DNA from: Nannocystis sp.
GTDB taxonomy: Bacteria > Myxococcota_A > Polyangia > Nannocystales > Nannocystaceae
Direction: 5' to 3' (one strand)
Assembly (NCBI RefSeq): GCF_016717175.1
Contig: NZ_JADKFZ010000003.1
DNA: 64,000 bases
Positions 37,947-59,582 of the stretch are shown here, piece after piece. Position 1 is the stretch's first letter. Each line of letters opens with the position of its first letter. Position numbers and translations under genes: made by a program. The notes under the pieces were generated by a model, which saw only the letters and a program-made list of their open reading frames with translations, was not told the origin of the DNA and did not search any database.

Positions 37947-37996
37947 GTCACGTCCCGCTTGCGTGTGCACGGCCGAGTCGCCACAAACGGAGCCGC

Positions 37997-38548: not shown

Positions 38549-38568
38549 TCCATGATCGAGATCCCGCG

Positions 38569-42899: not shown

Positions 42900-45809
42900 T
42901 TGAATCAGATCACCCAATTCGGCCCTTACAAGCTGATCGAGCGCATCAGCGTGGGTGGCATGGCAGAGGTGTACAAGGCCACAGAGCACGGCGTGGAGGG
43001 CTTCGAACGCACCGTCGCGGTCAAGCGGATCTTGCCCCACATCGCGGAGGATGACGAGTTCATCACGATGTTCAAGGACGAGGCCAAGATCGCCGGCCAG
43101 CTCCAGCACGGGAACATCGCCCAGATCTACAACCTCGGTCAGCAGGGCGACAGCTTCTACATCGCCCTCGAGTACGTCGCCGGCAAGGACCTGCGCAACA
43201 TCTTCACCCGCTGCCAGCAGCAGGGGCGCGCCATGCCGATCGCCCAGGCCTGCTTCATCGTGATGAAGGTCGGCGAGGGCCTCGACTACGCCCACAACAA
43301 GCGCGACAAGCACGGCCGCCACCTCAACATCGTCCACCGCGACGTGAGCCCGCCGAACGTGCTCGTGTCCTACGAGGGCGAGGTCAAGCTCATCGACTTC
43401 GGCGTCGCCAAGGCCGCCGGTCGCGTCAGCCGCACCCAGGCCGGCATCCTCAAGGGCAAGTTCGGCTACATGTCCCCGGAGCAGGTCCGCGGCATGCCGC
43501 TCGACCGCCGCAGCGACGTGTTCTCGCTCGGCGTCGTCCTCTTCGAGACCCTCGTCGGTCAGCGCCTGTTCCAGGGCGACACCGACTTCGCGACCCTCGA
43601 GATGGTGCGCACCGTCGACGTGCCCGCCCCGAGCAGCAAGAACCCGGAGATCCCCAAGGACCTCGAGGCCATCATCATGAAGGCCCTCTCCGGCGAGCCG
43701 GAGACCCGCTACCAGACGGCGATGGAGCTCCACGACGACCTCCAGGCCTTCATGTTCCAGCACGGCATGTTCTACAGCCGCAAGGACCTCGCCGCGTGGA
43801 TGCGCAAGCAGTACGCCCGCGAGATCGAGCTGGAGAAGGACAAGAACACCGGCAAGTCGGCGCCCCCGCGGCCCGCACCGCCGGGCGCCGCCGCTGGTCG
43901 CAAGCCCACGCTGAGCGGTGTGCCGGCCCCCAAGGCCGCGCCGCCCGCGGCCCCACCCACGCCCGCAGCCGGCGCCCCGCGCCCGCCGCCCGCGGTCAAG
44001 CCGCCGCCCGGCTCGCCCGGCCCCAAGCCGCCCGCCGTTGGTCTGCCCAAGCCCGGCGCCGGCGATGCCCTCGAGCCCACCGAAGAGCAGCTCGCCGCCG
44101 CCCGCAAGCGCAGCAAGACCATGCTCATGTCGCCGTCGAATCGGCCGACGACGCTCAAGCCCGGGGCAACCGGCGCCGTGCCGACGATCCCCGCTGGCCT
44201 CGCAGCGATGCCGAAGCCCGCCGATCCGCTCAAGCAGACGATCGTCCCCGGCGGCGCCCCGCCGCCCGCAGTCGTCGCGCCCAAGATCGCATCGGTGCCG
44301 CTGCACCCGCCGACGCAGGCGCCCCGGCCCACCGTCGCCCCGGTCGCCAAGGCTGCCCCGTCCAGCGAGGACGGCCCCGATCTCGACTGGGACGACGACG
44401 AGCTCGAGACCAAACTCTTCGACGAGCCCGGTGGCCCGGGTGCCCCCGGTGCCCCTGCCATGGCCGCCTCCGTGCCGAGCGCCGCGCGCAGCAAGGTCAA
44501 GCCCGAGGAGGCCGGTTCGATCGCGCCGCTCATCCCGAAGGTCGGGCAGATCGAGGCCGACGAGGACGATGGCCCAGCCACCGTGCAGCTGCCGCCCAAC
44601 GCGGCTGCCGTCATCATCCAGCCGCTCATGGCCGCTGCAGCCGCTGCAGCTGCGGCCGCTCAGTCGATGCCCGGCGGCTCGATGCCCGGCGGCTCGATGC
44701 CCGGCGGCGCCATGCCCGGCGCCTCGATGTCCGGCGGCGCCATGCCCTCCGCCCCCGGCTTCCCGCAGCAGTCGAGCCCCGGTCTGCCGCAGCCCCCGCG
44801 CCGCGGCCAGCAGACGATGCCCACGCCGGAGCTCGCCGACGTCGAGGACACAGAGACTGGCAAGCGCAAGCCCAACTTCCTGCTCATCGGCGGGATCGCG
44901 GCGGGTGTGCTCCTGCTGATCGTCGTCATCGCCATGTTCTCCGGCGGCGGCGACAAGCCCGGCGAGGTCGCCAGCAACGACTCCGGCACGCCAGCTGCGG
45001 CCAGCGGCGGGGCTGTGCCAGGGCCGACGGTCGGCGGCCTCCAGATCGAGGTCTCGCCCGCGGACGCCAAGATCCTGGTCGACGGCGCCGAGGTCCCCGG
45101 CAGCGGCTCCTCGCGCGTGGTCAACAACCTCGCGGTCGGCAAGCACAAGCTCACCGTCAACTTCGGCGACGCCTATCTCCCCTTCGAGCAGGAGGTCGAC
45201 GTCGTCGCCAGTCAGCTGGCCAACTTCCCGGTCAAGCTCAGCGTCCGCGACGTCACCGTCACGGTCACCACCGAGCCGGCAGAGGCCGCCCTCAAGCTCA
45301 TCGAGGGCCAGAACCCGCCGACCGTCGTCGGCAAGGGCGGCGACAGCTTCAAGGTCCAGCGCAAACCCGGCGCGACCTACAAGCTGCTCGCCGAGCTCGC
45401 CGGCTACGATCCCAGCGAGATCCCGCTCACCTTCACCGGTGGCCCCAACGACAGCGCCAAGCTCGTGCTCATCAAGAGCAAGGCCGGCACGCCGCCGACG
45501 CCACCCGAGACCACGCCGCCGATCCCGACCCCGCCCCCCGGCGAGGTCACGCCGCCCAAGCCCAAGGATCCGAAGCCCAAGCAGCCGCCGAAGGCCAAGA
45601 CCGCCGAGCTCAAGATCGGCTCGGGCCCCGGCCTCCCGCCCGCGACTGTGTGGGTCGACGGCCAGAAGCAGCCCAAGCCCACGCCAGTCACCGTGATGGT
45701 CACCGCCGGCGCCCACACGGTGAAGTGGAAGTATCCCGACGGCAAGACCACCACCAAGAAGGTCACCGCCGCGGACAAGTCGAGCCAGGTCATCAAGGGC
45801 ACCCTCTAA
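42900..45809 (+). CDS. Hanks-type Ser/Thr protein kinase with long Pro/Ala-rich linker, TM segment and C-terminal PEGA-like domains
   Basis: ORF 42900..45809 (TTG start). GGMAEVYKA, HRDVSPPN, DFG, SPE motifs. TM (FLLIGGIAAGVLLLIVVIAMF). LQIEVSPADAKILVDGAEV...GKHKLTV PEGA-like fold. Confidence 0.85.
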   Translation: MNQITQFGPYKLIERISVGGMAEVYKATEHGVEGFERTVAVKRILPHIAEDDEFITMFKDEAKIAGQLQHGNIAQIYNLGQQGDSFYIALEYVAGKDLRNIFTRCQQQGRAMPIAQACFIVMKVGEGLDYAHNKRDKHGRHLNIVHRDVSPPNVLVSYEGEVKLIDFGVAKAAGRVSRTQAGILKGKFGYMSPEQVRGMPLDRRSDVFSLGVVLFETLVGQRLFQGDTDFATLEMVRTVDVPAPSSKNPEIPKDLEAIIMKALSGEPETRYQTAMELHDDLQAFMFQHGMFYSRKDLAAWMRKQYAREIELEKDKNTGKSAPPRPAPPGAAAGRKPTLSGVPAPKAAPPAAPPTPAAGAPRPPPAVKPPPGSPGPKPPAVGLPKPGAGDALEPTEEQLAAARKRSKTMLMSPSNRPTTLKPGATGAVPTIPAGLAAMPKPADPLKQTIVPGGAPPPAVVAPKIASVPLHPPTQAPRPTVAPVAKAAPSSEDGPDLDWDDDELETKLFDEPGGPGAPGAPAMAASVPSAARSKVKPEEAGSIAPLIPKVGQIEADEDDGPATVQLPPNAAAVIIQPLMAAAAAAAAAAQSMPGGSMPGGSMPGGAMPGASMSGGAMPSAPGFPQQSSPGLPQPPRRGQQTMPTPELADVEDTETGKRKPNFLLIGGIAAGVLLLIVVIAMFSGGGDKPGEVASNDSGTPAAASGGAVPGPTVGGLQIEVSPADAKILVDGAEVPGSGSSRVVNNLAVGKHKLTVNFGDAYLPFEQEVDVVASQLANFPVKLSVRDVTVTVTTEPAEAALKLIEGQNPPTVVGKGGDSFKVQRKPGATYKLLAELAGYDPSEIPLTFTGGPNDSAKLVLIKSKAGTPPTPPETTPPIPTPPPGEVTPPKPKDPKPKQPPKAKTAELKIGSGPGLPPATVWVDGQKQPKPTPVTVMVTAGAHTVKWKYPDGKTTTKKVTAADKSSQVIKGTL

Positions 45810-45894
45810 GGTCCCCGCTTCAGGCTTGGGCTTCGGGCCCCGCTCGTCGGGCTCGCGCTTGAACAAAGCTCGGGGACAGGGTAATCCGCCCGCC

Positions 45895-46413
45895 ATGAGC
45901 GAGCGGCCGCAGATCTTCGAGGGCACGCTGGACGCGACCGGGCTCCGCTTCGCGATCGTCGTCAGCCGCTTCAACAACTTCATCACCGACCGCCTGCTCG
46001 ACGGCGCCATCGACACGCTGCTCCGCTCCGGCGCCAGCGTCGGCGACATCCTCGTCGTCAAGGTCCCCGGCGCCTTCGAGATCCCCAGCGCCGTCACCCA
46101 GGTGCTCGGCGCCCGCAGCGTCGACGCCGTCATCACGCTCGGCTGCCTGATCAAGGGCGACACGATCCACTTCGACCTCATCGCCCAGGAGGTCACGCGA
46201 GCGATCGGCCAGCTCGCGCTCGCCTTCGAGGTCCCGATCAGCTTCGGCGTCCTCACCACCGACACCCTCGAGCAGGCGATCCACCGCGCCGGCGCCAAGG
46301 CGGGCAACAAGGGCGGAGAGGCGGCCCTCGCGGCGATCGAGCAGGTGCGCCTGTTCCGGGCCCTCGCCGCCGGCGCACAGGGGCAGGGCGAGGCCAGCGA
46401 TGCTACCGGTTGA
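45895..46413 (+). CDS. ribH: 6,7-dimethyl-8-ribityllumazine synthase
   Basis: Internal ATG of ORF 45826..46413. GLRFAIVVSRFN and GAFEIP motifs of RibH. Confidence 0.85.
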   Translation: MSERPQIFEGTLDATGLRFAIVVSRFNNFITDRLLDGAIDTLLRSGASVGDILVVKVPGAFEIPSAVTQVLGARSVDAVITLGCLIKGDTIHFDLIAQEVTRAIGQLALAFEVPISFGVLTTDTLEQAIHRAGAKAGNKGGEAALAAIEQVRLFRALAAGAQGQGEASDATG

Positions 46414-46903
46414 CGACTCGCCGGCGGCGCGTGGCCGCAGCCGGGCCGGCCGCGCCGAGGGCCGCGAGCTCGCGCTGCTCGCCCTCTGCCACCTCGAGTC
46501 CTACCGCGAGCCCGAGCGCGCCCAGGCCCTCGACATCTTCTGGACCCACGCCCCCAGCGAGGCCGGCGACGACGGCGCCGAGCTGCGCAGCTGGCTGAGG
46601 GACCCCGAGGCCACGGCCTTCGCCCGCCGTCTGCTCGCCGCTGCCCTCGAACGCGGCCCCGAGATCGACGCCGCGATCGAGGCCACCTCCCGCAGCTGGC
46701 GGCTCGCCCGGATGGACCGCGTCGACCGCAACCTCCTGCGCCTCGTCGGCGTCGAGATGCTCGCCATCGAGGACACGCCGCGCGCCGTGATCGTCGCCGA
46801 GGCTGTCCGCCTCGCCGCCCGCTATGGCAGCGATCGCAGCGCCCCCTTCGTCAACGGCGTCGCCGAGGCGCTGGCCAAGCGCCTGCGTCCGACTGGCAAG
46901 TAG
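46400..46903 (+). CDS. nusB: Transcription antitermination factor NusB
   Basis: ORF 46400..46903. Overlaps ribH (classic ribH-nusB pair). RELALLALCHLE... NusB fold motifs. Confidence 0.8.
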   Translation: MLPVDDSPAARGRSRAGRAEGRELALLALCHLESYREPERAQALDIFWTHAPSEAGDDGAELRSWLRDPEATAFARRLLAAALERGPEIDAAIEATSRSWRLARMDRVDRNLLRLVGVEMLAIEDTPRAVIVAEAVRLAARYGSDRSAPFVNGVAEALAKRLRPTGK

Positions 46904-46920: not shown

Positions 46921-47033
46921 CCGTGCGGGCGTTCACGCCCCCGCGGAGATCCCGCGCGTGGCGTGCTACGCCCTCCAGGCGGCCCTCCAGCGGCCGCCCC
47001 GGGCGTCCAACGACCGGCGTATACTGCCCGGCG

Positions 47034-47429
47034 ATGTCGATCCGGGTACTTCTCGTCGAGGACTCCCCCGCCATGCGCAGCTTCGTGGGCTCCGTGCTCG
47101 AGTCGGCCGGCGAGTACCACGTCGACGAGGTCAAGGACGGCTTCGACGCCCTGCGGGTGATGCCGCGAACCGACTACGACCTCGTGATCACGGACATCAA
47201 CATGCCGGACATCAACGGCCTCGAGCTCATCCGCGCCGTCCGTCAGCAGCCGCGCCACGTCCACACCCCACTCATCGTCATCACCACCAACGACCGCGCG
47301 CAAGACGTCGAGCGCGCCCTGAAGCTCGGCGCCTCCGCGGTGCTCACCAAGCCCTTCACGCCCGAGGCGCTGCTCGACACCGTCGCTCGCCTGTGCAAGA
47401 CGGCCCGCGGCCCAGGAGGCGGCGGTTGA
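47034..47429 (+). CDS. cheY: CheY-like single-domain response regulator
   Basis: Internal ATG of ORF 46824..47429. VLLVEDS...DLVITDINMPDINGLEL...K receiver motifs. Confidence 0.85.
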   Translation: MSIRVLLVEDSPAMRSFVGSVLESAGEYHVDEVKDGFDALRVMPRTDYDLVITDINMPDINGLELIRAVRQQPRHVHTPLIVITTNDRAQDVERALKLGASAVLTKPFTPEALLDTVARLCKTARGPGGGG

Positions 47430-49849
47430 GCAGCGTCGACCAGAACGCCTCCGAGTTCATCGCCGAGGCGCAGGAGGTCATCGAGACCTTCTCGCGCACG
47501 CTGCTCGAGCTCGAGGCCCAGTCGCGCACCGGCTCCACCGACCCGGACCTCCTCAACGCCGCGTTCCGGGCGATCCACAGCCTCAAGGGCCTCGCCGGCC
47601 TGTTCGGCGCCGCCGCGATCGGCGGCCTCAGCCACACCCTCGAGAGCACCCTCGACAGCCTCCGCCTCGGCAAGCTCGGCCTCGGCCGCGTCGTGCTCGA
47701 CGTCCTGTTCGAGGCGATCGAGATGTTCGGTCGCCTGCTCACCCCGCGCGACGAGACCGACGAGCCCGAGCCCGACATCGAGCCGATCCTCGCCCGCCTG
47801 CGCGCCCTCACCGAGCAGGAGGCCCCGGAGCTGCCGCAGGACAACCTCGAGTGGGTCGGCGAGGCGATCCTCAGCGTGCTCACCGAGTACGAGGAGCACC
47901 GCCTGCGGGAGAACATCCGCTCCGGCCGCGGCCTGTTCCGCGTCCACGCGAAGTTCGACATCCTCGCCATCGACGTCGGCATCGAGCAGCTCAAGGACAA
48001 GATGAAGCTCTACGGGGAGGTCATCACCTACCTCCCCAGCGCCGACGGATCGTCCGACGACGCGATCGAGCTCGACATCCTGCTCGGCTCCAAGAGCAGC
48101 CTCGCCGAGCTGTCCTCCGCCCTCGCCGTCGGCGACGTCACCGTCCACCGCCTCGCCGCCGCCGAGGCCAGCTCCGTCATCACCCCCGCGCCCGCACACA
48201 AGCCGGCGAGCCCCGCCCCGGCGAGCCCCGCCCCGGCGAGCCCCGCCCCGGGCCGGGCCGCCGCTCCCCCGCCGACCCGGACCGCCGCCGCCTCGGCGCC
48301 ACCGCCCCGGCCCGCCGCCGCCCCGCCGCAGACACCCGCGCGCCGCGACCCCGAGCCCGCGCCAGCCCCCGCGCGCGCCCCCGTCGCCCGCGGCCCCGTC
48401 ACGCCCGCACCGTCTCGCCGCGAGCCCGCGCCCGTGCCGCTCGGCGACGACGCCCCGGTCGAGGCCGCCAGCTCCGAGACCAGCCTGCGCAGCCTCAGCC
48501 AGACGGTCCGCGTCGACCTCCGTCGCCTCGACCTCCTGATGAACCTCGTCGGCGAGCTCGGCCTCGTCCAGAACAACCTCGCCGGCGTGCTCGAGTCCGT
48601 GCGCCAGCTCGACCACAGCGCCGACGTCTCGCGCGAGCTCTCGGTCCAGATCCGCGACATGACCCGCAAGCTCGCGCTGCTGCAGCAGGGCATCCTCGAC
48701 GTCCGCATGGTCCCGATCGGCCAGGTCTTCGACAAGCTGGCCCGCGTCGTCCGCAAGCTCAGCCGCGACCTCGACAAGGAGATCCGCCTCGTCATCTCCG
48801 GCGCCGAGACCGTGCTCGACAAGCTCATCGTCGAGGAGCTCAGCGATCCGCTGATGCACATGATCCGCAACTGCATCGACCACGGCATCGAGCCGGCGGG
48901 CGAGCGGGCCCGCCTCGGCAAGCAGCCGGCCGGACGCATCGAGCTGCGCGCCTTCCAGAAGGGCAACCGCGTCGTCATCGAGGTCGAGGACGACGGCGGC
49001 GGCATCGACTGGCTGCGCATCCGCGACATGGGCGTGCGCCGCGGCCTCGTCAGCGCCGAGGAGGCCGTCTCCATGACCCCCTCCGAGGCGATCAACCTGA
49101 TCTTCTCCCCCGGCTTCTCGATCCGCGAGCACGCCACCGAGGTCAGCGGCCGCGGCGTCGGCATGGACATCGTCAAGACCAACATCGCCAAGCTCAGCGG
49201 CATGATCGACGTCACCACCGAGGTCGGCCGCGGCACCAAGTTCGCGATCACGCTGCCCGTCACCCTGGCGATCATCCAGGCGCTCGTCATCCAGAGCGCC
49301 GGCCACACCTTCTGCATCCCGCTCAACTCGGTGCTCGAGTCGATCATGGTCGAGGTCCGCGAGATCAGCACCATCGAGGGCCACGAGGTCATCATCCTCA
49401 ACAAGCGGACCCTGCCGCTGCTCTACCTCTCGCGCCTGTTCGCCCTGCGCCCGCTGTCCCGCACCTACCGCGATCCCAACCGCGTCTACGTCGTGGTCGT
49501 CGGGCTCGCGCAGCACCGCGTCGGCCTCGTCGTCGACGAGCTGCTCGGCCAGCAAGACGTCGTCATCAAGCCGCTCGGCAGCGCCGTGCGCAACGTCCCC
49601 GGCATCGCCGGCGCCACCGAGCTCGGGGCCAACCGCACGGTCCTGCTCCTCGACGTCGGCCGCCTCGTCGACGAGGGCGTGCGCCAGGCCGACGCGGCCA
49701 TCTCCATCGGTGGCTCGCTCGGTGGCTCGCTCGGCGGCTCGGGGGGCGGCAACCTCGGCGGCGCGAGCGTGGGCGGCAACTCCGGCTTCGGCGGCCTGTC
49801 CGGCGGCACCCAGTCCTCGCATCTCGGAGGTACGACGCATGTCCGTTGA
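47426..49849 (+). CDS. cheA: Chemotaxis histidine kinase CheA (HPt - Pro-rich linker - dimerisation - HATPase - CheW-like; no receiver)
   Basis: In ORF 46958..49849 from a TTG at 47426 overlapping the cheY TGA (TTGA). HPt motif AFRAIHSLKG, HATPase (DDGGGID, GRGVGMD), C-terminal CheW-like domain. Confidence 0.8.
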   Translation: MSSVDQNASEFIAEAQEVIETFSRTLLELEAQSRTGSTDPDLLNAAFRAIHSLKGLAGLFGAAAIGGLSHTLESTLDSLRLGKLGLGRVVLDVLFEAIEMFGRLLTPRDETDEPEPDIEPILARLRALTEQEAPELPQDNLEWVGEAILSVLTEYEEHRLRENIRSGRGLFRVHAKFDILAIDVGIEQLKDKMKLYGEVITYLPSADGSSDDAIELDILLGSKSSLAELSSALAVGDVTVHRLAAAEASSVITPAPAHKPASPAPASPAPASPAPGRAAAPPPTRTAAASAPPPRPAAAPPQTPARRDPEPAPAPARAPVARGPVTPAPSRREPAPVPLGDDAPVEAASSETSLRSLSQTVRVDLRRLDLLMNLVGELGLVQNNLAGVLESVRQLDHSADVSRELSVQIRDMTRKLALLQQGILDVRMVPIGQVFDKLARVVRKLSRDLDKEIRLVISGAETVLDKLIVEELSDPLMHMIRNCIDHGIEPAGERARLGKQPAGRIELRAFQKGNRVVIEVEDDGGGIDWLRIRDMGVRRGLVSAEEAVSMTPSEAINLIFSPGFSIREHATEVSGRGVGMDIVKTNIAKLSGMIDVTTEVGRGTKFAITLPVTLAIIQALVIQSAGHTFCIPLNSVLESIMVEVREISTIEGHEVIILNKRTLPLLYLSRLFALRPLSRTYRDPNRVYVVVVGLAQHRVGLVVDELLGQQDVVIKPLGSAVRNVPGIAGATELGANRTVLLLDVGRLVDEGVRQADAAISIGGSLGGSLGGSGGGNLGGASVGGNSGFGGLSGGTQSSHLGGTTHVR

Positions 49850-50480
49850 GCGCGAGGACATGTGGCAGGCGCTGCTGCGCAGCGGCGAGACCCTCGCCAC
49901 CGACGAGGACTACGAGCACGGCTACAAGCGCGAGGTCCCGCAGGACCTCCAGCAGTACGTCAGCTTCCGCGTCAGCGGCGAGATCTATGGCCTGCCGATC
50001 CACGAGATCGAGGAGATCAGCAAGGTCTTCGGCACCACCCACGTGCCGCGCACCGCCGATTTCCTGGTCGGCATCGGCAACGTCCGCGGCCGCATCATGC
50101 CGGTCATCGACCTCGCCCGCCGCCTGCGCCTGCGCCCGGTCGAGCGCGGTCGCACCGCCCGCGTCCTCATCGTCAACCTCAACGACGAGTCCTACGGCCT
50201 CGTCGTCGACGCCGTCATCGACGTCATCCGCATCCCCCCCGAGAAGATCGAGGAGAAGCCCGGCGGCATCACGGGCCCGCGCGCCGAGTACATCCGCGGC
50301 CTCGGCCGCCGCAAGGGCGCGGTCACCGTCGCCAAGGGCGCCGACGTCAAGGACCGCGGCGTGGTCGAGGACATCGTCATCATCCTCAACCTCACCACCC
50401 TCCTCGACCCCAAGGACTTCATCCGCACGGGTCCGGCCGTAGGTGGGCCGTCGGGCGGCGGCGAGGAGGGCAGGGGATGA
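49839..50480 (+). CDS. cheW: CheW-like coupling protein 1
   Basis: ATG at 49839 (overlaps cheA by 11 nt) in ORF 49710..50480. SGEIYGLPIHEIEEI...VGIGNVRGRIMPVIDL CheW fold. Confidence 0.8.
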   Translation: MSVEREDMWQALLRSGETLATDEDYEHGYKREVPQDLQQYVSFRVSGEIYGLPIHEIEEISKVFGTTHVPRTADFLVGIGNVRGRIMPVIDLARRLRLRPVERGRTARVLIVNLNDESYGLVVDAVIDVIRIPPEKIEEKPGGITGPRAEYIRGLGRRKGAVTVAKGADVKDRGVVEDIVIILNLTTLLDPKDFIRTGPAVGGPSGGGEEGRG

Positions 50481-50992
50481 GCGACCAGGAGCGTCTCGCT
50501 GGCGCCGAGGAGGACCTGAAGCTGGCCGGCTTCTACGTCGGCCAGGGCCTCTACGGCATCGAGATCATGCGCATCAAGGAGGTCATCCAGACCCGCAACC
50601 TCACCGTGCGCCCGGTGCCCTTCGCCCCCGCGATCGTCGAGGGCGTGATCCAGCTGCGCGGCGTCGTCATCCCGGTCGTCGACCTCCGCCGCCGCTTCGA
50701 CAGCACCATCGACCCCGCGATCGAGCACCTCAACAAGCTCATCATCGTCAGCGTCGCGGGCCGCATCGCCGGCCTCAAGGTCGACCGCGTGCTCGGCGAG
50801 CTGCGCGTGGCCGCCGGCGGCCTGCGCCCGGCCCCGTCCATGCTCCGGGCCGACGGCGAGCGCAGCAGCGGCAGCGACAACGTGTTCAGCGGCGTCAGCC
50901 GGATCTCCCGCGACCGCTCCGATGCCGAGATGGTGTTCGTGATCAACCTCGACGTGCTCCTCCGCGGCGGCCAGCCCGGCGGGGGGCGGTAG
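50477..50992 (+). CDS. cheW: CheW-like coupling protein 2
   Basis: ATG at 50477 overlapping the previous stop (ATGA). GQGLYGIEIMRIKEVIQ...IQLRGVVIPVVDL. Confidence 0.75.
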   Translation: MSDQERLAGAEEDLKLAGFYVGQGLYGIEIMRIKEVIQTRNLTVRPVPFAPAIVEGVIQLRGVVIPVVDLRRRFDSTIDPAIEHLNKLIIVSVAGRIAGLKVDRVLGELRVAAGGLRPAPSMLRADGERSSGSDNVFSGVSRISRDRSDAEMVFVINLDVLLRGGQPGGGR

Positions 50993-51001
50993 GCCCAGGG
51001 G

Positions 51002-51787
51002 ATGGAGAAGTACAAGATCCTGGTCGCCCACGAGCGCCCCGTCATCGCCCGCGCGATCGCCAGGGTGCTCGCCGCGCAGGGCCTCGTCGCCGAGGTCGCC
51101 CGCGACGGCGACGCGGTCTGGCGCGCCCTCGAGAGCGACAGCTGGGACGGCCTCCTCCTCGACGTCGCCCTGCCCGGACCGCCGGTGCACCAGATCGTCG
51201 CCCTCGCCAAGACCGGCGTCCCCCTGGCCCTGCGCGCGGTCATCCTCCTCGCCTCCGTGTTCCGTCGCTCGAGCTACAAGCGCCGCCCGCAGCAGCTCTA
51301 CGGCGCGGACAGCTACGTCGAGGGCCACCAGCTCGGCGCCGAGTTGTCGACCAAGCTGTGGCGCCTGCTCTCCCCCGACCCCGCCGGCCCCGGTGACATG
51401 GTCGAGGCCGAGGCGCTGCTCGTCGAGCTGCAGGCCGAGGCCGAGGCCGCCGCCGCCGCCGAGGTCGCCGAGGCCGCCACCGCAGCCACCGGCGCTACCG
51501 TTCAGCGCCCCCGCGATCCCGCCGCCGAGCTCGCCGATCTGCTCGTCGCCGACCTCCTGCTCCATGCCGGCGAGAAGCTCAGCGACGCCGACGCCGACGC
51601 GGCTGACCCCCCGCGCGCGAGCGACATCGCGGTCGTCCACGAGGTCCTCGCCGACGAGCTCGCCCAGGCGCGCGAGCTCCACAGCGCCGCCCTCGGCCCC
51701 GCGACGGCCGACGCCGACCCGATCGCCGCGGCCCTCGACCGCTTCCTGCGTCCGTCCGCGGACGAGCGAGGCGGCGCGTGGACCTGA
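51002..51787 (+). CDS. Degenerate receiver-like (pseudo-receiver) protein with acidic Ala-rich tail
   Basis: ORF 51002..51787. KILVAHERP...LLLDVALPG has the receiver topology but lacks the N-terminal acidic pair. Confidence 0.55.
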   Translation: MEKYKILVAHERPVIARAIARVLAAQGLVAEVARDGDAVWRALESDSWDGLLLDVALPGPPVHQIVALAKTGVPLALRAVILLASVFRRSSYKRRPQQLYGADSYVEGHQLGAELSTKLWRLLSPDPAGPGDMVEAEALLVELQAEAEAAAAAEVAEAATAATGATVQRPRDPAAELADLLVADLLLHAGEKLSDADADAADPPRASDIAVVHEVLADELAQARELHSAALGPATADADPIAAALDRFLRPSADERGGAWT

Positions 51788-53814
51788 CACCCCAGCCCCT
51801 CCCGCCGGAGCTCGAGCGCCTGCTCGCTCGCTTCTCTGGCGAGAGCTGGCGCGAGCGCAAGCAGGCCGTCAAGGATCTTCAGGCCGCGCTCGAGCGCGTC
51901 CCCCCGACCCCGGAGGTGCTGGTCGCGCTGCTCGAGCGCCTGCTCGACGGCCTCACCTCGGAGTCCGTCCCGGCCCGCTCGACCTGCCACGAGATGCTCG
52001 TCCACCTCGGCAGCTCCGGCCTCGCCGGCGCGCTGCGACGCCTGCAGGCCGGCGGTCGCGGGGCCCGGATGTACGTCGACCTCCTGGCCGACATCGGCAA
52101 GCCCGAGCACGTCCCGCTGCTCGCCGTGGTCCTGCAGACCGCCACCGACGACAACGTCCGCGCCTCCGCGGCGGCCGCCCTCGGGGCGATCGGCGGGCCC
52201 GCGGCCGAGGCGGCCCTCAAGCAGGCCCTGGCGGACAGCTCCGACATGCTGCAGCTGTTCGCCCTCGACGCGCTGCGCTCGATCGGCGCCGCCCTCTCGG
52301 TCGATCTCCTGCTCCCGCGCATCGACAACGCCGTCACTCGCCGCGCCGCCACCTCGCTGCTCGGCCACAGCGCGACCCCCGAGGCGCTCGACCTCCTGGT
52401 CGCCCTCCTGCGCGACAGCATGGCCGGCGTGCGCGCGGCGGCGGCGGTCGCCCTCGTCACCCTCGACGCCGCCCTCGCCGACCAGGGCAAGCCCGACGCC
52501 GTCGCCGCGGCGCTCGCCGGCAGCATCGACGACGCCGTCCGTCAGCGCCAGCGCGAGCTCGTCGAGCACCGCCAGACGGAGGTCAAGATCGCCGCGCTCG
52601 AGCTGTGCCGCATGACCAAAGATGCAGGTGCCTTGAGACATGTCCTCTCGGCCATGTCGGACCCCGTCGTGCGTGAGCGGGCCGCCGGCTTCGTCACCGC
52701 CCTGGGCGCCGAGGCCGGCCCGGCCCTCATGGCGCTCGCACCGTCGGTCGGCGCGGCGACCCTCGGTGATCTCTTCGTCCTGATCGGCGCGCTCGGCCCC
52801 GAGGTCGGGCCGTCCGACGGGCCCCTCATCGCCGTCCTGGTCGCCGGCCTCGAGCACCCCGATCCAGCGACCGCCTGCGTCGCCGCTGGCGCGCTCGGCC
52901 GGGTCGGAGACGCCGCCGCCTTCGCGCCTCTGGTCGCGACGCTCGGCGCACCCGACCCGCTCGGAGAGGCCACCGCCGCTGCGCTCGTCGTCCTCACCGA
53001 ACGCCACGGCCCCGCCGCACCCGCGGCCGCGGCCCTCCTGCGCGGCGCCACCACGGCCACCGGCACCCGCGCGCGCAACCTCTGTCGCGTCCTCGGGGCT
53101 CTCGGCCGCGGCGGCGACACCCGCTACGTGCCGCCGCTGGTCGCCCTCCTCGGCGCCCCCGAGCCGCTGGTCCGCGTCGCCGCAGCGCGGGCCCTCGGTC
53201 ACATCGCTGGTGAGCACGAGGGCGTCACCGCGTTGTGCATGGTCCTCCACGACGGCGACGCCGGCGTGCGCGCGGCGGCCTGCCGCAGCCTCGGTCAGGT
53301 CGGCGCTGGCGCGGCCGTCCAGGCGCTGCTGGGCGCCACCACCGACGACAGCGCCCAGGTCCGCGCCGCCGCCGTGCACGCCCTCGTCAGCCTCGACAAC
53401 CCCGTCGCGCTGGCTCGCCTCCGCGAGATCGTGCTCGCCGACAGCTCGCCGAGCGTCGTCATCCCCGCGATCGCCGGCCTCGGTCGCGGCGGCGGCGACC
53501 TCGACCTCACCCTCCTGATGAGCCTGTGCGGCTCCACCGATCACGAGGTCGCCAAGGCCGCCGCCCGCGGACTGGTCCGCTTCAGCGCCCACCGGGCCAC
53601 CGCCGCCGTCCTCGGTCTGCTCGCGCACGATCGCTGGGACGTGCGCTGGGCCGCCGCCGAGGTGCTCGCCGAGCGCGGTGACCTCACCGCCCTCGCGCCG
53701 CTGCGCCGCGTCCAGGCGCTCGAGCGCGACCCGCTGGTGCGGCAGGTCCTGGCCGGCGCGGTCGCTCGCCTCGAGGGCCTCGCGGCGGCCAGCGACTCGG
53801 AGCTCCCCGCGTGA
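51778..53814 (+). CDS. HEAT-repeat (PBS-lyase-like) protein
   Basis: ORF 51778..53814 (GTG start, 10-nt overlap). Repeated ...VRAAAAxALGxIG... HEAT/PBS-lyase-type units throughout. Confidence 0.7.
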   Translation: MDLTPQPLPPELERLLARFSGESWRERKQAVKDLQAALERVPPTPEVLVALLERLLDGLTSESVPARSTCHEMLVHLGSSGLAGALRRLQAGGRGARMYVDLLADIGKPEHVPLLAVVLQTATDDNVRASAAAALGAIGGPAAEAALKQALADSSDMLQLFALDALRSIGAALSVDLLLPRIDNAVTRRAATSLLGHSATPEALDLLVALLRDSMAGVRAAAAVALVTLDAALADQGKPDAVAAALAGSIDDAVRQRQRELVEHRQTEVKIAALELCRMTKDAGALRHVLSAMSDPVVRERAAGFVTALGAEAGPALMALAPSVGAATLGDLFVLIGALGPEVGPSDGPLIAVLVAGLEHPDPATACVAAGALGRVGDAAAFAPLVATLGAPDPLGEATAAALVVLTERHGPAAPAAAALLRGATTATGTRARNLCRVLGALGRGGDTRYVPPLVALLGAPEPLVRVAAARALGHIAGEHEGVTALCMVLHDGDAGVRAAACRSLGQVGAGAAVQALLGATTDDSAQVRAAAVHALVSLDNPVALARLREIVLADSSPSVVIPAIAGLGRGGGDLDLTLLMSLCGSTDHEVAKAAARGLVRFSAHRATAAVLGLLAHDRWDVRWAAAEVLAERGDLTALAPLRRVQALERDPLVRQVLAGAVARLEGLAAASDSELPA

Positions 53815-54674
53815 GTGCCCCGCGTCCGCCCCTCGATCGCGGAGCCGTGCGCATCCGGATCTCGCCCGAGGAGACGCGCCTCCTACAGGAGCTGATCCTC
53901 GAGCACTGCGGCGTCAACCTCGGCGTCGACGCCGGCTTCCTGTTCGAGCGTCGCCTCGGCGTCCGCCTCGAGGCCCTCTCGCTCGCGTCCTTCCGCGAGT
54001 ACTTCCATTACCTCAGCTACGACCTCGACGGCCCCGCCGAGCTCGAGGACTGCATCGAGCGCATCACCACCCACGAGACCTACTTCTTCCGCGAGCAGTT
54101 CCAGCTCGACGCCTTCCGCCAGGAGATCATCCCGCAGCTCGTGCATGGCGACGCCGGGGGCCGCGGTCCCGCCGTGTGGAGCGCCGGCTGCTCGACGGGC
54201 GAGGAGGCCTACACGATCGCGATGTTGCTGGCCGAAGCCGCCCCCCAGGCCGCCAGCCTCGTGATCGGCAGCGACATCAGCCGCAAGGTCCTCGCCACCG
54301 CACAGCAGGGCGTCTACGGCCCCGCCAGCTTCCGCACCACCGACGACGCCGTGCGCGATCGTCAGTTCCTCCCCGCCGGCCCCGGCCTGTGGCGCGTGCC
54401 CCCATCGATCCGTCGCATGTGCAGCTTCGTCCACCTCAACCTGCTGGAGGTCGCACGCTACGCCACGCTCGGCCGACTCGACGTGATTTTCTGCCGCAAT
54501 GTCCTGATGTATTTGTCGAGCCCGGCCCGCCATCGCATCGTCGAGGCGTTCTACGATGCCCTCGTGCCAGGCGGCTTCCTCCTCCTCGGCCACTCCGAGA
54601 GCCTGCTTAACGTCACCACCCGCTTCGACCTCGTCCACCTCAGCAGCGACCTCGTGTACCGCCGCCCCGCGTGA
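53811..54674 (+). CDS. cheR: Chemotaxis protein methyltransferase CheR
   Basis: ORF 53811..54674 (GTG overlapping the upstream TGA). TYFFREQ, VWSAGCSTGEEAYTIAMLL SAM-binding motifs. Confidence 0.85.
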   Translation: MSAPRPPLDRGAVRIRISPEETRLLQELILEHCGVNLGVDAGFLFERRLGVRLEALSLASFREYFHYLSYDLDGPAELEDCIERITTHETYFFREQFQLDAFRQEIIPQLVHGDAGGRGPAVWSAGCSTGEEAYTIAMLLAEAAPQAASLVIGSDISRKVLATAQQGVYGPASFRTTDDAVRDRQFLPAGPGLWRVPPSIRRMCSFVHLNLLEVARYATLGRLDVIFCRNVLMYLSSPARHRIVEAFYDALVPGGFLLLGHSESLLNVTTRFDLVHLSSDLVYRRPA

Positions 54675-55918
54675 GCGGGTCCTCGCCAACGCCTCTGCTC
54701 GCCATGGAAACCCTCGATCCCCCGCTGCGTGCGCCTGGCCAGAAGGTCCGCGTCCTCGTCGTCGACGACTCGGCCTACAACCGGCAGACGATCAGCGCGA
54801 TGCTCGAGTCGGACCCCCAGATCGAGGTCATCGGCCGCGCCTCGAACGGCAAGGAGGCGCTGCGTCAGGCCTTCGATCTCCACCCGGACGCCATCACCCT
54901 CGACCTCGAGATGCCGGAGATGGACGGCTTCGCCTTCCTCCGCCTGTTGATGGCCAAGCGACCGGTCCCGGTGATCGTCATCTCCAGCCACAGTGAGCGC
55001 GACAACGTGTTTCGCGCGCTCGAGCTCGGCGCGATGGACTTCATCGCCAAGCCGGGTCGCCACATCGGCCCCGACCTGCGCATGATCCAGGACGACCTCG
55101 TGCTCAAGATCCGCACGGTCGCCCGCCTCAGCGTCGTGCGCCTGCTGGCCCGCGCCCAGGCGCTCGTCGAGCAGCGCTCCGATCGCAGCACCGGCGAGCT
55201 CCCGGCCTTCGACAGCGGCCGCTACGACGTCGGCGGCGGGACCCAGCCGCCGATGCTCGGGGTCCTCGGCATCGCCGCGTCGACCGGCGGACCGCCCGCG
55301 ATCCAGCAGCTGCTGTGCGCCCTGCCGTCGACCTTGCCGCTGGCGATCGTCATCGCCCAGCACATGCCGGCTCGCTTCACCCGGGCCTTCGCCGCCCGCC
55401 TCGACAAGATCTGCGCGTTCCAGGTGGTCGAGGCCAGCGACGCCCAGGTGCTCAAGGCCGGCACCGTCTACATCGCCCCCGGCGCCGCCAACCTCGAGGT
55501 CGAGTCGTGCAACCCGCCCGGTGCGGCCCGCGTCCGCGTGCGACCACCGCGGCAGGGCGCCGCCATCGTCCCGTCCGGCGACATGCTGTTCAAGACCGCC
55601 GCCGACGTGTTCGGGCCCCGCTTCTGCGCTCTCGTGCTGACCGGGATGGGCTCCGACGGCCGCGAGGGCGCCGAGCTGGCGCGCCGCGCCGGTGCCACCG
55701 TGCTCGCCGAGGATCCGCGCACCGCCGTCATGCCCGGCATGCCCGGCTCCGCCATCGACGCCGGTGTCGTCGACCAGGTCCTCGCGCTCGAGGAGCTGCC
55801 CGTGGCGATCCAGCGCTTCGCCGACCACTGCCGCGGCCTGGCTGTCAGCTCCGGCGGGCCTGGCGGGCGCCATGACACCGGGCCTCGCGGCGATTCCGGC
55901 AGCTCCAGCGAACGTTGA
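54671..55918 (+). CDS. cheB: Chemotaxis response regulator protein-glutamate methylesterase CheB
   Basis: ORF 54671..55918 (GTG overlap). Receiver (VLVVDDS...TLDLEMPEMDG) plus methylesterase (GIAASTGGPPA, QHMP, GMGSDG). Confidence 0.85.
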   Translation: MSGSSPTPLLAMETLDPPLRAPGQKVRVLVVDDSAYNRQTISAMLESDPQIEVIGRASNGKEALRQAFDLHPDAITLDLEMPEMDGFAFLRLLMAKRPVPVIVISSHSERDNVFRALELGAMDFIAKPGRHIGPDLRMIQDDLVLKIRTVARLSVVRLLARAQALVEQRSDRSTGELPAFDSGRYDVGGGTQPPMLGVLGIAASTGGPPAIQQLLCALPSTLPLAIVIAQHMPARFTRAFAARLDKICAFQVVEASDAQVLKAGTVYIAPGAANLEVESCNPPGAARVRVRPPRQGAAIVPSGDMLFKTAADVFGPRFCALVLTGMGSDGREGAELARRAGATVLAEDPRTAVMPGMPGSAIDAGVVDQVLALEELPVAIQRFADHCRGLAVSSGGPGGRHDTGPRGDSGSSSER

Positions 55919-55994
55919 CCGGCTTCATGCTTTTCTGCACCCCGCGCGCCAGGGCCAGGATCGGGCGGCGCTGCGGCGTGATATCTTCGCCGAG

Positions 55995-56861
55995 ATGCGC
56001 GTGCAGGACACGGGTCAGGGCGATCGGAGCTCCCGGCCCTTGGCTTCTCTCCAAGACTTCTTCGGCCGCGGCGAGGTGTTTGTCCGCCAGCTCATCGCCG
56101 AGAACCAGCGCCTGCGCAGCGAGCTCCACGAGGCCCACCCTGGCCGTGACGACCTCCCCGCGCAGCATTCCGCCTCGATCATCGAGGACCTCATGGCCCG
56201 CGTCGCCGAGCTCGAGGTGGCCGCCGCGGCGACTGAAGCTGCGGACGACGAGGACGACGACGACACCGACACCGACCCGTCCGACTCCGCTCGCGTCCTC
56301 GGCCTGACCGAGCGCGTCGAGCAGCTCGAGGACGAGAACTACCACCTCGCCTCGATGTACGTCGCCGGCTTGCAGTTCCACTCGGCGCGCACGCTCGCCG
56401 AGGTGCTGCAGACGGTCACGGAGATTCTGCTCAACTTCGTCGGCGTCGGCGCCTTCACCGTCTTCATGCTCGATGAGGAGCGCCAGATGTTGTTCGCCCT
56501 GGTGCGCGAAGGCGGCGACATCGAGGCCTGCGGCGAGGTGCCGGTCCACGGCGAGGCCGGCGCGTTGGGGCCCTTCGCCGCGATGATCCAGCGCGCCCGC
56601 CCATGGACCCGCGGAGATCCCGCATACGCGGACGACAACGCGATCCTGTATCTTCCCCTGGTCAGCAACCGCCGGCTCGTCGCGGTGCTGCGCCTGGAGG
56701 GCTTCCTGCCCCAGAAGCCAGGCTTCGACGACAACGACTTCAGCTTGCTGTCTATGATCTCCGAACACGCGGGCATCGCCATCGAGACGGCCTGGATCCG
56801 GGCCCACGCGAAGACAGTGCCGCTGCAACGACAGGCCGTGGAGCATCTGGTGGGCGCATGA
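55995..56861 (+). CDS. Coiled-coil + GAF-domain protein (an alternative in-frame ATG at 55872 would overlap cheB by 47 nt)
   Basis: Frame of ORF 55692..56861. QLIAENQRLRSEL / LEDENYHL coiled-coil segments, acidic linker, then a GAF-like fold (LAEVLQTVTEILLNFVGVGAFTVFMLDEE...). Confidence 0.6.
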   Translation: MRVQDTGQGDRSSRPLASLQDFFGRGEVFVRQLIAENQRLRSELHEAHPGRDDLPAQHSASIIEDLMARVAELEVAAAATEAADDEDDDDTDTDPSDSARVLGLTERVEQLEDENYHLASMYVAGLQFHSARTLAEVLQTVTEILLNFVGVGAFTVFMLDEERQMLFALVREGGDIEACGEVPVHGEAGALGPFAAMIQRARPWTRGDPAYADDNAILYLPLVSNRRLVAVLRLEGFLPQKPGFDDNDFSLLSMISEHAGIAIETAWIRAHAKTVPLQRQAVEHLVGA

Positions 56862-57271
56862 CGCAAGACAGCACAGAGACCACGAGACGGCTGCAGGCGC
56901 TGGTTGTCGAGGACAGCCCGCCGATGCGCAAGATGATCGTGTTCGCCCTGTCGCGGATCAAGGGCCTCGTGGTCGCCGAGGCCGATGACGGCGTCGACGC
57001 GCTGCGCCGCCTCGCCGGCACCAAGTACGACCTCATCATCACCGACATCAACATGCCGATCCTCGACGGCCTGAAGCTCGTCAAGCGCCTGCGCGCCGAC
57101 GAGTCCTACATGCACGTCCCGATCATCATCATCACCACCGAGGGCGCCGCCGAGGACCGCCAGCGGGCGCTGGCGCTCGGCGCCAACGCGTACATCACCA
57201 AGCCGATCCAGGCCCCACAGGTGATCAAGCTGGTGAAGGAGATCCTCGGCATCGTCGACGACCCGCGTTAG
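56858..57271 (+). CDS. cheY: CheY-like single-domain response regulator
   Basis: ATG at 56858 overlapping the upstream TGA (ATGA); tail of ORF 56603..57271. ALVVEDS...DLIITDINMPILDGL...K. Confidence 0.8.
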   Translation: MTQDSTETTRRLQALVVEDSPPMRKMIVFALSRIKGLVVAEADDGVDALRRLAGTKYDLIITDINMPILDGLKLVKRLRADESYMHVPIIIITTEGAAEDRQRALALGANAYITKPIQAPQVIKLVKEILGIVDDPR

Positions 57272-57299: not shown

Positions 57300-58268
57300 A
57301 TGGCTCGCCCCGCGCCCGGTCGCCGCGCTGCCCCGCCTCGCCCCGCACCTGTCTCGAAGGCCAGCCCCGGGGGCCTCGACGGCGCGATCGACGAGTACCT
57401 CATGCACCTCAAGGTCGAGCGGGGCCTGCGGCCCAACTCGCTCACCGCCTACGCCCAGGACCTGCGCGAGCTGGCCGCCTTCCTGGTCGCTCGCCTCGGT
57501 GACCCGGCCCCGCTCGCGCGCGTCGACCCGCCGCTGCTGCTCGCCTATCTGCAGGCGATCGCCCCGAAGCTCAAGGCCCGCAGCCAGGCCCGCCGCGTCG
57601 TCGCCCTGCGCGGCCTGTTCCGCTGGCTGCGCGAGGAGGGGCAGATCGCCGTCGACCCCAGCCAGGGCCTCGCCGCGCCGCGCCTGGCCCAGAAGCTCCC
57701 CGACCTGCTCGGCCGCGACGAGGTCCTGCGCCTGCTCGCCGCGCCCGGTAGCGACGGCCCGCTCGCGCTGCGCGACACGGCCCTGCTCGAGCTGCTCTAC
57801 GCCAGCGGCTGCCGCATCTCCGAGGCGCTCGACCTCAGCCTCGATCGCCTCTACCTCGACCAGGCCGTGGTCCGGCTGATCGGCAAGGGCGACAAGATGC
57901 GCCTGTGCCCGATCGGCGGCCCCGCGGTCGCGGCCCTGCACGCCTGGCTGCGCGACGGCCGACCCGCGCTGGCTCGGGGCAAGCGCCCGAGCCCGCTGGT
58001 CTTCCTCAACAAGAGCGGCGCCCGCCTGTCACGCCAGGGCTTCTTCCAGAAGCTGCGCGAGCACGCGATCGCGGCCGGCATCACCCGCGACATCTCGCCG
58101 CACAAGCTCCGCCACAGCTTCGCCACCCACCTGCTCGAGGGCGGCGCTGACCTGCGCGCCGTGCAGACCCTGCTCGGCCACGCCGACATCGCCACGACCC
58201 AGATCTACACCCACGTCAGCGACGCCCAGCTGCGCAGCGCCCACCGCAAGCACCACCCGCGCGCCTGA
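57300..58268 (+). CDS. Tyrosine site-specific recombinase (XerC/XerD family)
   Basis: ORF 57300..58268. Core-binding domain plus catalytic R...[27 protein letters not shown]...Y motifs. Confidence 0.8.
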
Positions 58269-58277
58269 GCTGCGCGG

Positions 58278-58294
58278 CCTGTCCCAAGGGACAG
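58278..58294. promoter_or_regulatory. Perfect palindrome cctgtccc-aa-gggacag 10 nt after the recombinase stop
   Basis: 7-bp perfect arms read from the sequence. Confidence 0.4.
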
Positions 58295-58303
58295 ACCGCT
58301 GCG

Positions 58304-59143
58304 TCACGGGCAGCGCGGCGCGACGAAGCTGCCCTCGAGCTGCGGCTCGCTGAAGCTGAAGAAGCCGTCGACGTGGCACAGCCGGCCCGTCACGTTCTGG
58401 TCGTCGATCGCCAGGATCTCGAAGGTCGCGCCGAAGCTGCCGCCACCGAACGCGCAGTCGCTGTTGTTGCCGTTGACCGGGCCGGTCTCGCTGGCGCTGC
58501 CGGTCACGTCCTGCCCGAGCAGGTTGAACACGCCGGGCGACTGAAACTCGGGCGGAATGGCGATCGTCACGTCCCAGTGTTCGCCGCACGGGAGCGACGC
58601 CTGCGGGTCGACGCAGCTCGCCTTCTGGTCCGAGAGCCGCACGTACAGCGTGGCCGGGTCCGGCTCGCCGCCGCCGCTGCTGCCGCTGGTGCCCGTGGGG
58701 TTCGGCTGCGGGGGGATCTGCGACTTGAGATACGCGAGGGTCTCGACCCCGGCCAGCGGCGTGGCCATCCCCTCGCACGGCACCACGGGCGGCGGATCGC
58801 TGGTGTCGCCGGTGTCCAGCGAGGTCTGGCTGGTGGCGACGGTGGTCGCGCTGGTCGCCCCGGTGGTGGCGCTCGCGGTGCCCGGATCGCTGGTGGCGGT
58901 GGTCGTCGTGCCGGTCGCGGAGCCGGCCGATCCGCCGGAGCCGCTGTTGGTGGCCGACGCGGTACCTGGGCTGGTCGGGTCGCTGGCGCCGGTGGTCAGC
59001 TCCTCACCGGTGGTGGTCATGGTGCCGCTCGAGTCACCACCCTCGTCGTTGCCCATCTTGGGGCCGCAGGCGAGGCCAGCGGTGAGGCCAGTGGCGAGGC
59101 TGATGACGACGAGGGCGGGGAGCTTGTCGAGAAATGAAGCCAT
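58304..59143 (-). CDS. Thr/Ser/Gly-rich lipoprotein with Cys-containing C-terminal domain
   Basis: ORF 58304..59188(-). Start placed at [26 protein letters not shown] (lipobox). The 45-nt upstream extension overlaps a tandem repeat. Confidence 0.55.
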
Positions 59144-59210
59144 GGCGCCAGGCATAACATGGTGCCGCGGCATTGCGGTCACCTTCACCTGGCGCCTTCA
59201 CCTGGCGCCT

Positions 59211-59342
59211 TCACTTGGAGAACGCGCGCCCGAGCTCGCGGCTCAGGCGACCGCTCTGCAGGCGGTTCTCGACCTCACCATAGGCGGCATAGAGGGCGGG
59301 GAGCAGGCTGGCGATGGCGACGACGGTGATGAAGAGAGACAT
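59211..59342 (-). CDS. Candidate 43-aa small hydrophobic protein (MSLFITVVAIASLLPALYAAYGEVENRLQSGRLSRELGRAFSK)
   Basis: Own translation; below the size cutoff of the ORF track. AGGAAG Shine-Dalgarno-like sequence 8-11 nt upstream of the ATG. One predicted TM helix. Directly upstream of the lipoprotein gene on the same strand. Confidence 0.3.
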   Translation of the reverse strand: MSLFITVVAIASLLPALYAAYGEVENRLQSGRLSRELGRAFSK

Positions 59343-59582
59343 GGTGGTTGCTTCCTCTGCCGGCCCCATTAGCGAGAAGCATGCCGGTCGCTTGTGGTAC
59401 TCAACTATTTGAAATCAATGAATTCATGACACATGTCCGGCCTGGCTCGCGCTGGCAACTCGAGTTTCGTGGCCAGCAGCCCGAGCAGCCACCCCCGCTT
59501 GCGAACCTGGCTCTTGAGGCAGGTCATCAGCGCTTCGTCGCTTCGTTGACGGGCCCGGGCCGCTTCTCTACAGTCCCTCGCC

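Follow-up and report, generated by a model that had tools for sequence, protein, structure and literature searches.

Within a 64,000-nucleotide (nt) stretch of the Nannocystis sp. genome (assembly GCF_016717175.1, contig NZ_JADKFZ010000003.1), hereafter the window, positions 47034–57271 carry a ten-gene chemosensory (Che) cluster that is probably orthologous to the Che8-type "alternative cellular function" pathway of Myxococcota, with its receptor encoded in trans and with two outputs, one pairing the response regulator CheY1 with a HEAT-repeat protein and the other pairing CheY2 with a GAF-domain protein. The cluster is a real and intact ten-gene operon, and it belongs to a conserved, known type rather than to a new kind of system.

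The window has a G+C content of ~72%, at which most long open reading frames (ORFs) are spurious; we therefore used third-position GC (GC3) to fix the reading frames and named the genes by Pfam and NCBIfam. Ten uninterrupted plus-strand genes exactly span 47034–57271, all of them intact and with a strong coding signal, in the order cheY1–cheA–cheW1–cheW2–atypical receiver–HEAT–cheR–cheB–GAF–cheY2, confirming the gene content and order proposed for this DNA in an earlier note. The two outermost genes, cheY1 (47034–47429; 131 amino acids (aa); Pfam Response_reg, E-value (E) 1e-30) and cheY2 (56858–57271; 137 aa; Response_reg, E 3e-29), encode single-domain response regulators. Between them lie cheA (47426–49849; 807 aa), the coupling protein genes cheW1 (49839–50480; 213 aa; NCBIfam CheW, E 4e-16) and cheW2 (50477–50992; 171 aa; Pfam CheW, E 1e-22), and the gene for the atypical receiver, or pseudo-receiver (51002–51787; 261 aa), which scores 24.8 bits against Response_reg, below the cut-off of 30.2. 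The second half comprises the HEAT-repeat gene (51778–53814; 678 aa; Pfam HEAT_2, E 2e-54), cheR (53811–54674), which encodes a receptor glutamate methyltransferase of 287 aa (CheR, E 2e-50, plus CheR_N), cheB (54671–55918), whose 415-aa product joins a receiver to a methylesterase (CheB_methylest, E 2e-55, plus Response_reg), and the coiled-coil GAF gene (55995–56861; 288 aa from its homology-supported start; GAF_2, E 2e-12).

Seven of the nine junctions overlap, by 4, 11, 4, 10, 4, 4 and 4 nt in order, in keeping with the earlier view of one tightly coupled operon; the other two are gaps of 9 nt and ~76 nt. The cheA gene begins with a TTG behind AGGAGG, overlapping the cheY1 stop by 4 nt, and cheW1 begins at ATG 49839 behind GGAGG, overlapping cheA by 11 nt. 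The cheW1/cheW2 junction is an ATGA overlap, as is that between the GAF stop and the cheY2 start. The description of almost every junction as ATGA, TTGA or GTGA holds for the five 4-nt overlaps (TTGA, ATGA, GTGA, GTGA and ATGA), but not for a TTGA at 49846, which lies in the wrong frame: the frame 49846–50442, considered as the first cheW, encodes a Ser/Thr/Ala/Arg-rich product with no Pfam match, and GC3 favors the 49839 frame. By position, cheW1 is orthologous to the first cheW of every locus. The supposed overlap between cheB and the GAF gene probably does not stand either. In the family alignment, conservation of the GAF protein sets in at ATG 55995, which is most likely the start of the gene, the alternatives being 55872 and the TTG at 56040 used in the NCBI gene model; with a start at 55995, the junction is probably a 76-nt gap.

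The domain and residue make-up of the core proteins indicates signaling competence. According to Pfam, CheA consists of Hpt, a Pro/Ala-rich linker, dimerization (H-kinase_dim), ATPase (HATPase_c) and CheW-like P5 domains and has no receiver, as had been noted, and its translation contains the phospho-histidine motif HSLKG. The acidic pair, the phospho-acceptor Asp, Thr/Ser87 and Lys109 are all kept in CheY1, CheY2 and the CheB receiver. More precisely, E12, D13, D57, T87 and K109 are present in CheY1 and conserved in its orthologues, and D13, D57, T87, Y106 and K109 are invariant in 48 orthologues of CheY2. The ASTGG Ser, QHMP His and GMGSDG Asp motifs of CheB align with solved CheB structures, and CheR matches Pseudomonas aeruginosa CheR1 (5xly) over its full length (E 2e-42). 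Judged by their residues, CheA, CheR, CheB and the CheYs are those of a canonical methylation-dependent chemosensory core. CheY2 is the most conserved protein of the cluster, with 72–98% identity (mean 82%) across Nannocystales, and the best 120 matches listed in a CheY2 search all belong to that order; the mean identities of the other nine proteins range from 41 to 66% (atypical receiver, 41%; HEAT, 52%; GAF, 52%). The CheA linker (approximately residues 245–345; window positions 48160–48450) is of low complexity and rich in Pro and Ala, and its codons have a high G+C content at all three positions. A comparison of M. xanthus with M. fulvus found an internal region gained or lost in CheA8 (PMC4603909).

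The closest known system is Che8 of Myxococcus xanthus, which comprises MXAN_4759 (CheY8b), MXAN_4758 (CheA8), MXAN_4757 and MXAN_4756 (CheW8b and CheW8a), two unnamed genes (MXAN_4755 and MXAN_4754, candidates for the atypical receiver and HEAT genes), MXAN_4753 (CheR8), MXAN_4752 (CheB8) and MXAN_4751 (CheY8a) (PMC3945109). Both clusters follow the order cheY–cheA–cheW–cheW–x–x–cheR–cheB–cheY on one strand, and both encode a CheA without a receiver and a CheR of ~290 aa and contain no gene for a methyl-accepting chemotaxis protein (MCP). CheA8 has Hpt, dimerization, kinase and CheW domains and no receiver, five of the eight M. xanthus CheAs being receiver hybrids; CheR8 has 290 aa and no TPR; and none of the 21 M. 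xanthus MCPs has been assigned to che8 (PMC3945109). Both clusters also stand beside ribH, and the receptors of Che8 are presumed to be orphan MCPs. In M. xanthus, the lumazine synthase gene ribH (MXAN_4762) lies three genes from that of CheY8b (PMC5131308), an arrangement of ribH, two genes and cheY8b that resembles the ribH–nusB–(M17_N-like gene)–cheY of three of the related loci that we collected (L056, L061 and L066). The Nannocystis cluster differs from Che8 in its tenth gene, the coiled-coil GAF gene between cheB and the 3′ cheY, which Che8 lacks by gene count.

What has been published on Che8 itself is limited. Moine et al. grouped it with Dif and Che7 and linked the orphan receptors McpB and McpJ, together with Mcp7, to Che7/Che8; the cheA8 deletion was not among their S-motility mutants, and all cheA mutants were altered in development (PMC3945109). 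In a 2022 study, the function of Che8 was still given as unidentified, and CheA8 and CheA7 were implicated in the phosphorylation of MXAN_4468, an orphan regulator that together with HrcA affects the expression of groEL (PMC9040617).

The CheY2 and the GAF protein of the window match NCBI proteins of a Nannocystis sp. with 100% identity. To follow the cluster across genomes, we scanned one genome per GTDB species with the GAF-family alignment and obtained 47 loci, all from Nannocystales (Nannocystis, Enhygromyxa, Plesiocystis and metagenome-assembled genomes (MAGs)). When the window proteins were mapped onto them, the same gene order was found in all 47 species genomes, with nusB upstream and xer, a gene for a XerC/D-like recombinase, downstream wherever these flanks fall within the fetched contig. 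Each window protein best matches its positional counterpart, both in the 47 genomes and in dozens of metagenome contigs. A broader GAF alignment, run against metagenomes, recovered all ten genes in this arrangement, in most cases with xer behind them, from lineages that a CheR+CheB tree places well away from the Nannocystales branch. These loci, together with L056, overturned our initial notion that the GAF gene is specific to Nannocystales; the patterns of the genome scan had been too narrow for distant GAF homologues.

Clusters from Anaeromyxobacteraceae and other Myxococcota (L052–L056) are collinear with that of the window, lie beside ribH–nusB and have the HEAT gene in the same slot, and their CheA, CheR and CheB share 44–57% identity with the window proteins. 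The Anaeromyxobacteraceae-type clusters (L052, L054 and L055) read ribH–nusB–(small M17_N-like gene)–cheA–AAA_22 ATPase–cheW–cheW–HEAT–cheR–cheB–cheY; they differ from the cluster in the window in lacking the 5′ cheY, the atypical receiver and the GAF gene and in having, between cheA and the first cheW, a gene for a 274-aa AAA_22 P-loop ATPase (L052, 7718–8542; L054, 7692–8516; L055, 7468–8292). A "Myxococcales bacterium" MAG (L053) has cheY–cheA–cheW–cheW–receiver–HEAT–cheR–cheB, without the GAF gene and the 3′ cheY. In contrast, L056 has all ten genes plus an MCP gene in the operon and an upstream gene for a PatA_N protein. Hence the HEAT and GAF genes are conserved beside che genes in relatives, and neither a lack of such conservation nor an MCP gene immediately outside the cluster, the two findings that the earlier note would have counted against its proposal, was observed for Nannocystis. 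As far as sequence comparison can tell, the cluster is vertically inherited, lodged between ribH–nusB and xerC/D. The ten-gene, GAF-bearing version is widespread; we found no published description of it in a literature search that did not take in the survey of these genomes by Sharma et al. (2018).

Three accessory proteins set the cluster apart from a bare Che core. The atypical receiver has an N-terminal REC-like domain followed by a conserved C-terminal helical region. Across 26 orthologues it keeps only the equivalent of D57, with D12/D13 replaced by H-E, T87 by A/S and K109 by G/H, so that the 261-aa protein does not carry the residue set of a phosphorylatable receiver (acidic pair, Asp, Thr/Ser and Lys). 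It has invariant residues of its own (H10, D54, Y92, R94, Y100-G-A-D103 and E107), held in the motifs SYKRRP, LYGADDYVE and LIVADxxLYNGD, which suggests that it is under selection and has not decayed, and it is present in every GAF-type cluster. NCBIfam gave no specific family for this protein, and a single-sequence structure model, with a predicted local distance difference test (pLDDT) score of 54, was unusable. The HEAT protein consists of six HEAT_2 stretches with no other Pfam domain, its NCBIfam matches to phycobilin-lyase and NblB-like families being sub-threshold only. Its orthologues are 45–90% identical within Nannocystales, and full-length relatives with 30–35% identity fill the same slot in other Myxococcota che clusters.

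The GAF protein is conserved end to end in family alignments, and its AlphaFold model shows long helices followed by a GAF domain at pLDDT >90; an NCBIfam search gave no match for it. We considered two further roles for parts of this protein and set both aside. The N-terminus does not form a minimal MCP hairpin, as it has no MCPsignal similarity and its model shows plain helices leading into the GAF domain. The conserved LExENYHLA helix of the family is an unlikely carrier of a CheC/CheX-like ExxN phosphatase motif: members of the Enhygromyxa/Plesiocystis clade have His in place of the Asn, and L056 has a different motif.

The distribution of these genes points to pairings with the two CheYs. 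Among 35 genome loci with GAF-type clusters, cheY1 and the HEAT gene are both present in 26 and both absent from nine, and in none does one occur alone; on the CheR+CheB tree, the joint losses fall on at least three separate branches. This repeated joint loss supports a functional CheY1–HEAT pair, analogous to CheY7–Cpc7 of the M. xanthus Che7 system, and the phylogenetic profile thus makes the CheY–HEAT partnership suggested for this cluster plausible. For its part, cheY2 lies directly 3′ of the GAF gene wherever the downstream flank of that gene falls within the fetched contig. A bolder reading, possible although we give it a low probability, is that the GAF protein is a ligand-gated partner of CheY2, either an effector switched by CheY2 or a small-molecule-dependent modulator of phosphorylated CheY2 (CheY2~P). 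It would then provide Che8-type pathways with a second, cytoplasmic metabolic input, alongside a dedicated receptor or, in Nannocystales, instead of one, and CheY1–HEAT would be a separate, dispensable output branch.

No receptor gene accompanies the cluster. Using tblastn with the Tsr signaling domain on both strands of the 64-kb window, we obtained nothing better than E 0.12, and Pfam scans of all other credible window ORFs gave no MCPsignal match, in agreement with the earlier observation that no MCP gene lies inside or beside the cluster. Inspection of the flanks, which the note had recommended, revealed ribH and nusB upstream and the XerC/D-like gene 28 nt downstream, and no MCP gene. Nor is there an MCP match within 10 kb of the cluster in any of the 47 Nannocystales loci. 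In only one of ~130 related loci, L056, did we find such a match: an 856-aa protein with transmembrane, HAMP and MCPsignal regions (L056 15350–17920), encoded 9 nt after the 3′ cheY. L056 has 72% G+C and the full set of ten genes, with a clear homologue for each of the atypical receiver and the GAF protein, and its HAMP-MCP within the operon argues that the system uses conventional MCPs; by analogy with this locus, the pathway is compatible with an ordinary receptor. A receptor gene outside the cluster is the rule in the Che8-type family, and since M. xanthus Che8 also has no receptor gene in its cluster, this lack is a trait already known for the whole family, not something peculiar to the present locus. 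Both cheR and cheB are kept in every cluster variant. Nannocystineae genomes encode two to five MCPs each (PMC6194562). Given that CheR, CheB and both CheYs keep their catalytic residues, the input is most likely a receptor encoded elsewhere in the genome.

A dispersed receptor supply is familiar from other Che clusters, for example the main che cluster of Pseudomonas aeruginosa. They contain cheA, cheW, cheR and cheB without an adjacent mcp, and dispersed MCP genes feed the pathway; they control flagellar rotation and carry CheZ and motor genes. The Nannocystis cluster, by contrast, has no motility genes and has the HEAT, GAF and pseudo-receiver accessories.

The strongest alternative, which we nevertheless consider improbable, is a receptor-independent system in which the input to CheA comes not from an MCP but from the GAF protein, the HEAT protein or the atypical receiver, and in which CheR and CheB act on a non-MCP substrate. 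The near-complete lack of MCP genes within 10 kb in the ~130 loci would fit such a system, as would the fact that every cluster of this type has conserved the GAF protein and the atypical receiver, GAF domains being classical small-molecule sensors. However, CheA has a normal P5 domain and is accompanied by two CheWs of the ordinary kind, proteins known to bind the tip of the MCP, and CheR and CheB look catalytically normal, with no non-MCP substrate known for them. Moreover, cheA, cheW, cheR and cheB are kept in Che8-type clusters that have no GAF gene, namely those of Anaeromyxobacteraceae and, judged by its number of genes, that of M. xanthus. In L056, a standard MCP and the GAF protein are encoded in one operon, and the model of the GAF protein shows no MCP-like hairpin.

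We also compared the cluster with Che7, which the earlier note had named for its HEAT-repeat partner of a CheY. In that system, according to the work of Darnell et al. (2014) as summarised in two later papers (PMC11514114, PMC9040617), CheY7 signals to the HEAT-repeat protein Cpc7 and not to a motor or a transcription factor. The genes run CheB7 (6959), CheR7 (6960), Mcp7 (6962), CheW7, CheA7 and CheY7 (PMC3945109). Like Che7, the Nannocystis cluster encodes a single-domain CheY together with a HEAT-repeat protein and a receiver-less CheA, and Che7 is an alternative-function Che system that shares a phylogenetic group with Che8. In contrast to the Nannocystis cluster, Che7 has its own soluble, cytoplasmic Mcp7, a single CheW and a single CheY, and it differs in gene order and chromosomal location. 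Che7 also encodes the desaturase Des7, and Pfam found no desaturase among the cluster and its neighboring genes. The Che8 order, the two CheWs and two CheYs, the receiver-less CheA, the lack of an MCP gene and the ribH–nusB adjacency, as in MXAN_4751–4762, all point to Che8 as the closest system, and orthology with Che7 is thus very unlikely. What survives of the comparison is the plausibility of a CheY–HEAT partnership. That the cluster is a decaying or silent remnant, its receptor lost and its signaling ended, as the missing receptor gene and one "degenerate" receiver might suggest, has a negligible probability, given ten intact genes with a strong coding signal and conserved catalytic residues, a gene order kept in every Nannocystales genome found, the high identity of CheY2 and the invariant motifs of the atypical receiver, which indicate selection.

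Under the Che8-type interpretation, the pathway would work as follows. One or more conventional MCPs encoded elsewhere would provide the input, assembled into arrays with both CheWs and, through its P5 domain, with CheA, and would be methylated by CheR and demethylated by CheB for adaptation. From the Hpt histidine of CheA, phosphate could be passed to CheY1, CheY2 and the CheB receiver, all of which appear competent to accept it. Because no DNA-binding or enzymatic output domain is encoded, output is expected to occur through protein–protein contacts. CheY1~P probably has the HEAT protein as its target, in the manner of CheY7 and Cpc7, a step suggested by the co-loss of the two genes, and CheY2 may be paired with the GAF protein as its target or ligand-dependent modulator, to which their invariant adjacency and translational coupling point. 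The GAF protein may add a cytoplasmic small-molecule input. The atypical receiver, lacking the metal-binding pair and the Lys, is less likely to accept phosphate in the normal way than to serve as a scaffold or a partner in regulation. The process controlled would not be motility-specific.

Several points weigh against this interpretation. The Che8 orthology rests on gene order, domain architecture, gene counts, neighborhood and published tables, not on a CheA phylogeny, and the interactions and phosphotransfer proposed for the Nannocystis components are inferred. The receptor in trans is a prediction, the search for MCP genes in this genome having covered the 64-kb window. The Anaeromyxobacteraceae-type clusters L052, L054 and L055 keep the HEAT gene with a 3′ cheY only, so the HEAT protein is not strictly dependent on CheY1. 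Finally, the closest solved folds to the GAF protein are generic small-molecule-binding GAF domains.

Upstream of cheY1, the motif GGCGTATACTG (47016–47026, plus strand), with TATACT at 47020–47025, ends 7 nt before the ATG and is the sole conserved block in the otherwise divergent nusB–cheY1 spacer of eight Nannocystis loci. The cheY1 ATG has no Shine-Dalgarno sequence. We propose GGCGTATACTG as a candidate −10 element of the operon's own promoter, which would yield a leaderless or near-leaderless cheY1 mRNA; scans with a sigma-70 consensus promoter and for terminators found nothing above shuffled sequences.

The conserved upstream neighbors ribH and nusB (45826–46903, plus strand; Pfam DMRL_synthase and NusB), which are outside the system, are also found beside the cluster in Nannocystales, Anaeromyxobacteraceae and L056. 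In most lineages, a small protein with a weak Peptidase_M17_N (macro-like) match is encoded between nusB and the che cluster (L003, 209–1006; L004, 554–1267; L052, 4976–5551; L056, 1603–2226); it is absent from the window and from Nannocystis proper. In L056, a gene for a 701-aa PatA_N-domain protein (2362–4467) lies between the M17_N-like gene and cheY1. Downstream of the cluster, the xerC/D-like tyrosine recombinase gene (57300–58268, plus strand; Phage_integrase and a SAM-like N domain) is the next gene after cheY2 in nearly all GAF-type loci, even in lineages distant from Nannocystales; in L001 it occupies 11223–12218. A 4-nt overlap of xer with cheY2 in N. punicea raises the possibility that the recombinase gene is transcribed together with the che operon.

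Elsewhere in the window, hrcA, dnaK and dnaJ lie at 36756–41679, 5–10 kb upstream of the che cluster, a proximity that may be coincidental. Nearby signaling genes (20647–25362, 33221–34813 and 42900–45809) include one for a sigma-54 activator with a partial receiver, followed by one for a 1011-aa TPR protein, and two for Ser/Thr kinases, one of which has a PEGA domain and is encoded directly upstream of ribH. Long ORFs with a good coding signal and no Pfam family at E ≤1e-4 are found at 6254–8233, 9608–12283, 15971–17230, 30123–31511 and 58269–61614, and they include everything between xer and an ABC transporter gene at 61616.

Che8 is among the least understood of the eight Myxococcus chemosensory systems, and the present comparison presents the Che8-type system as a vertically inherited fixture beside ribH–nusB across Myxococcota, kept in every Nannocystales genome found. 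According to the 2018 survey of Sharma et al., the Nannocystales lineage reportedly has very few Che systems. The number of MCPs is also small, two to five (PMC6194562). Nannocystales should therefore offer a less complex setting in which to find the receptor and output of Che8 than M. xanthus, which has 21 MCPs and eight systems. The comparative data yield three hypotheses: a CheY1–HEAT pair, suggested by co-loss, a CheY2–GAF pair, and a conventional HAMP-MCP, as in L056, as the receptor type. The value of the cluster thus lies in Nannocystales as a low-complexity background in which Che8 may be solved and in the co-loss evidence that it adds.

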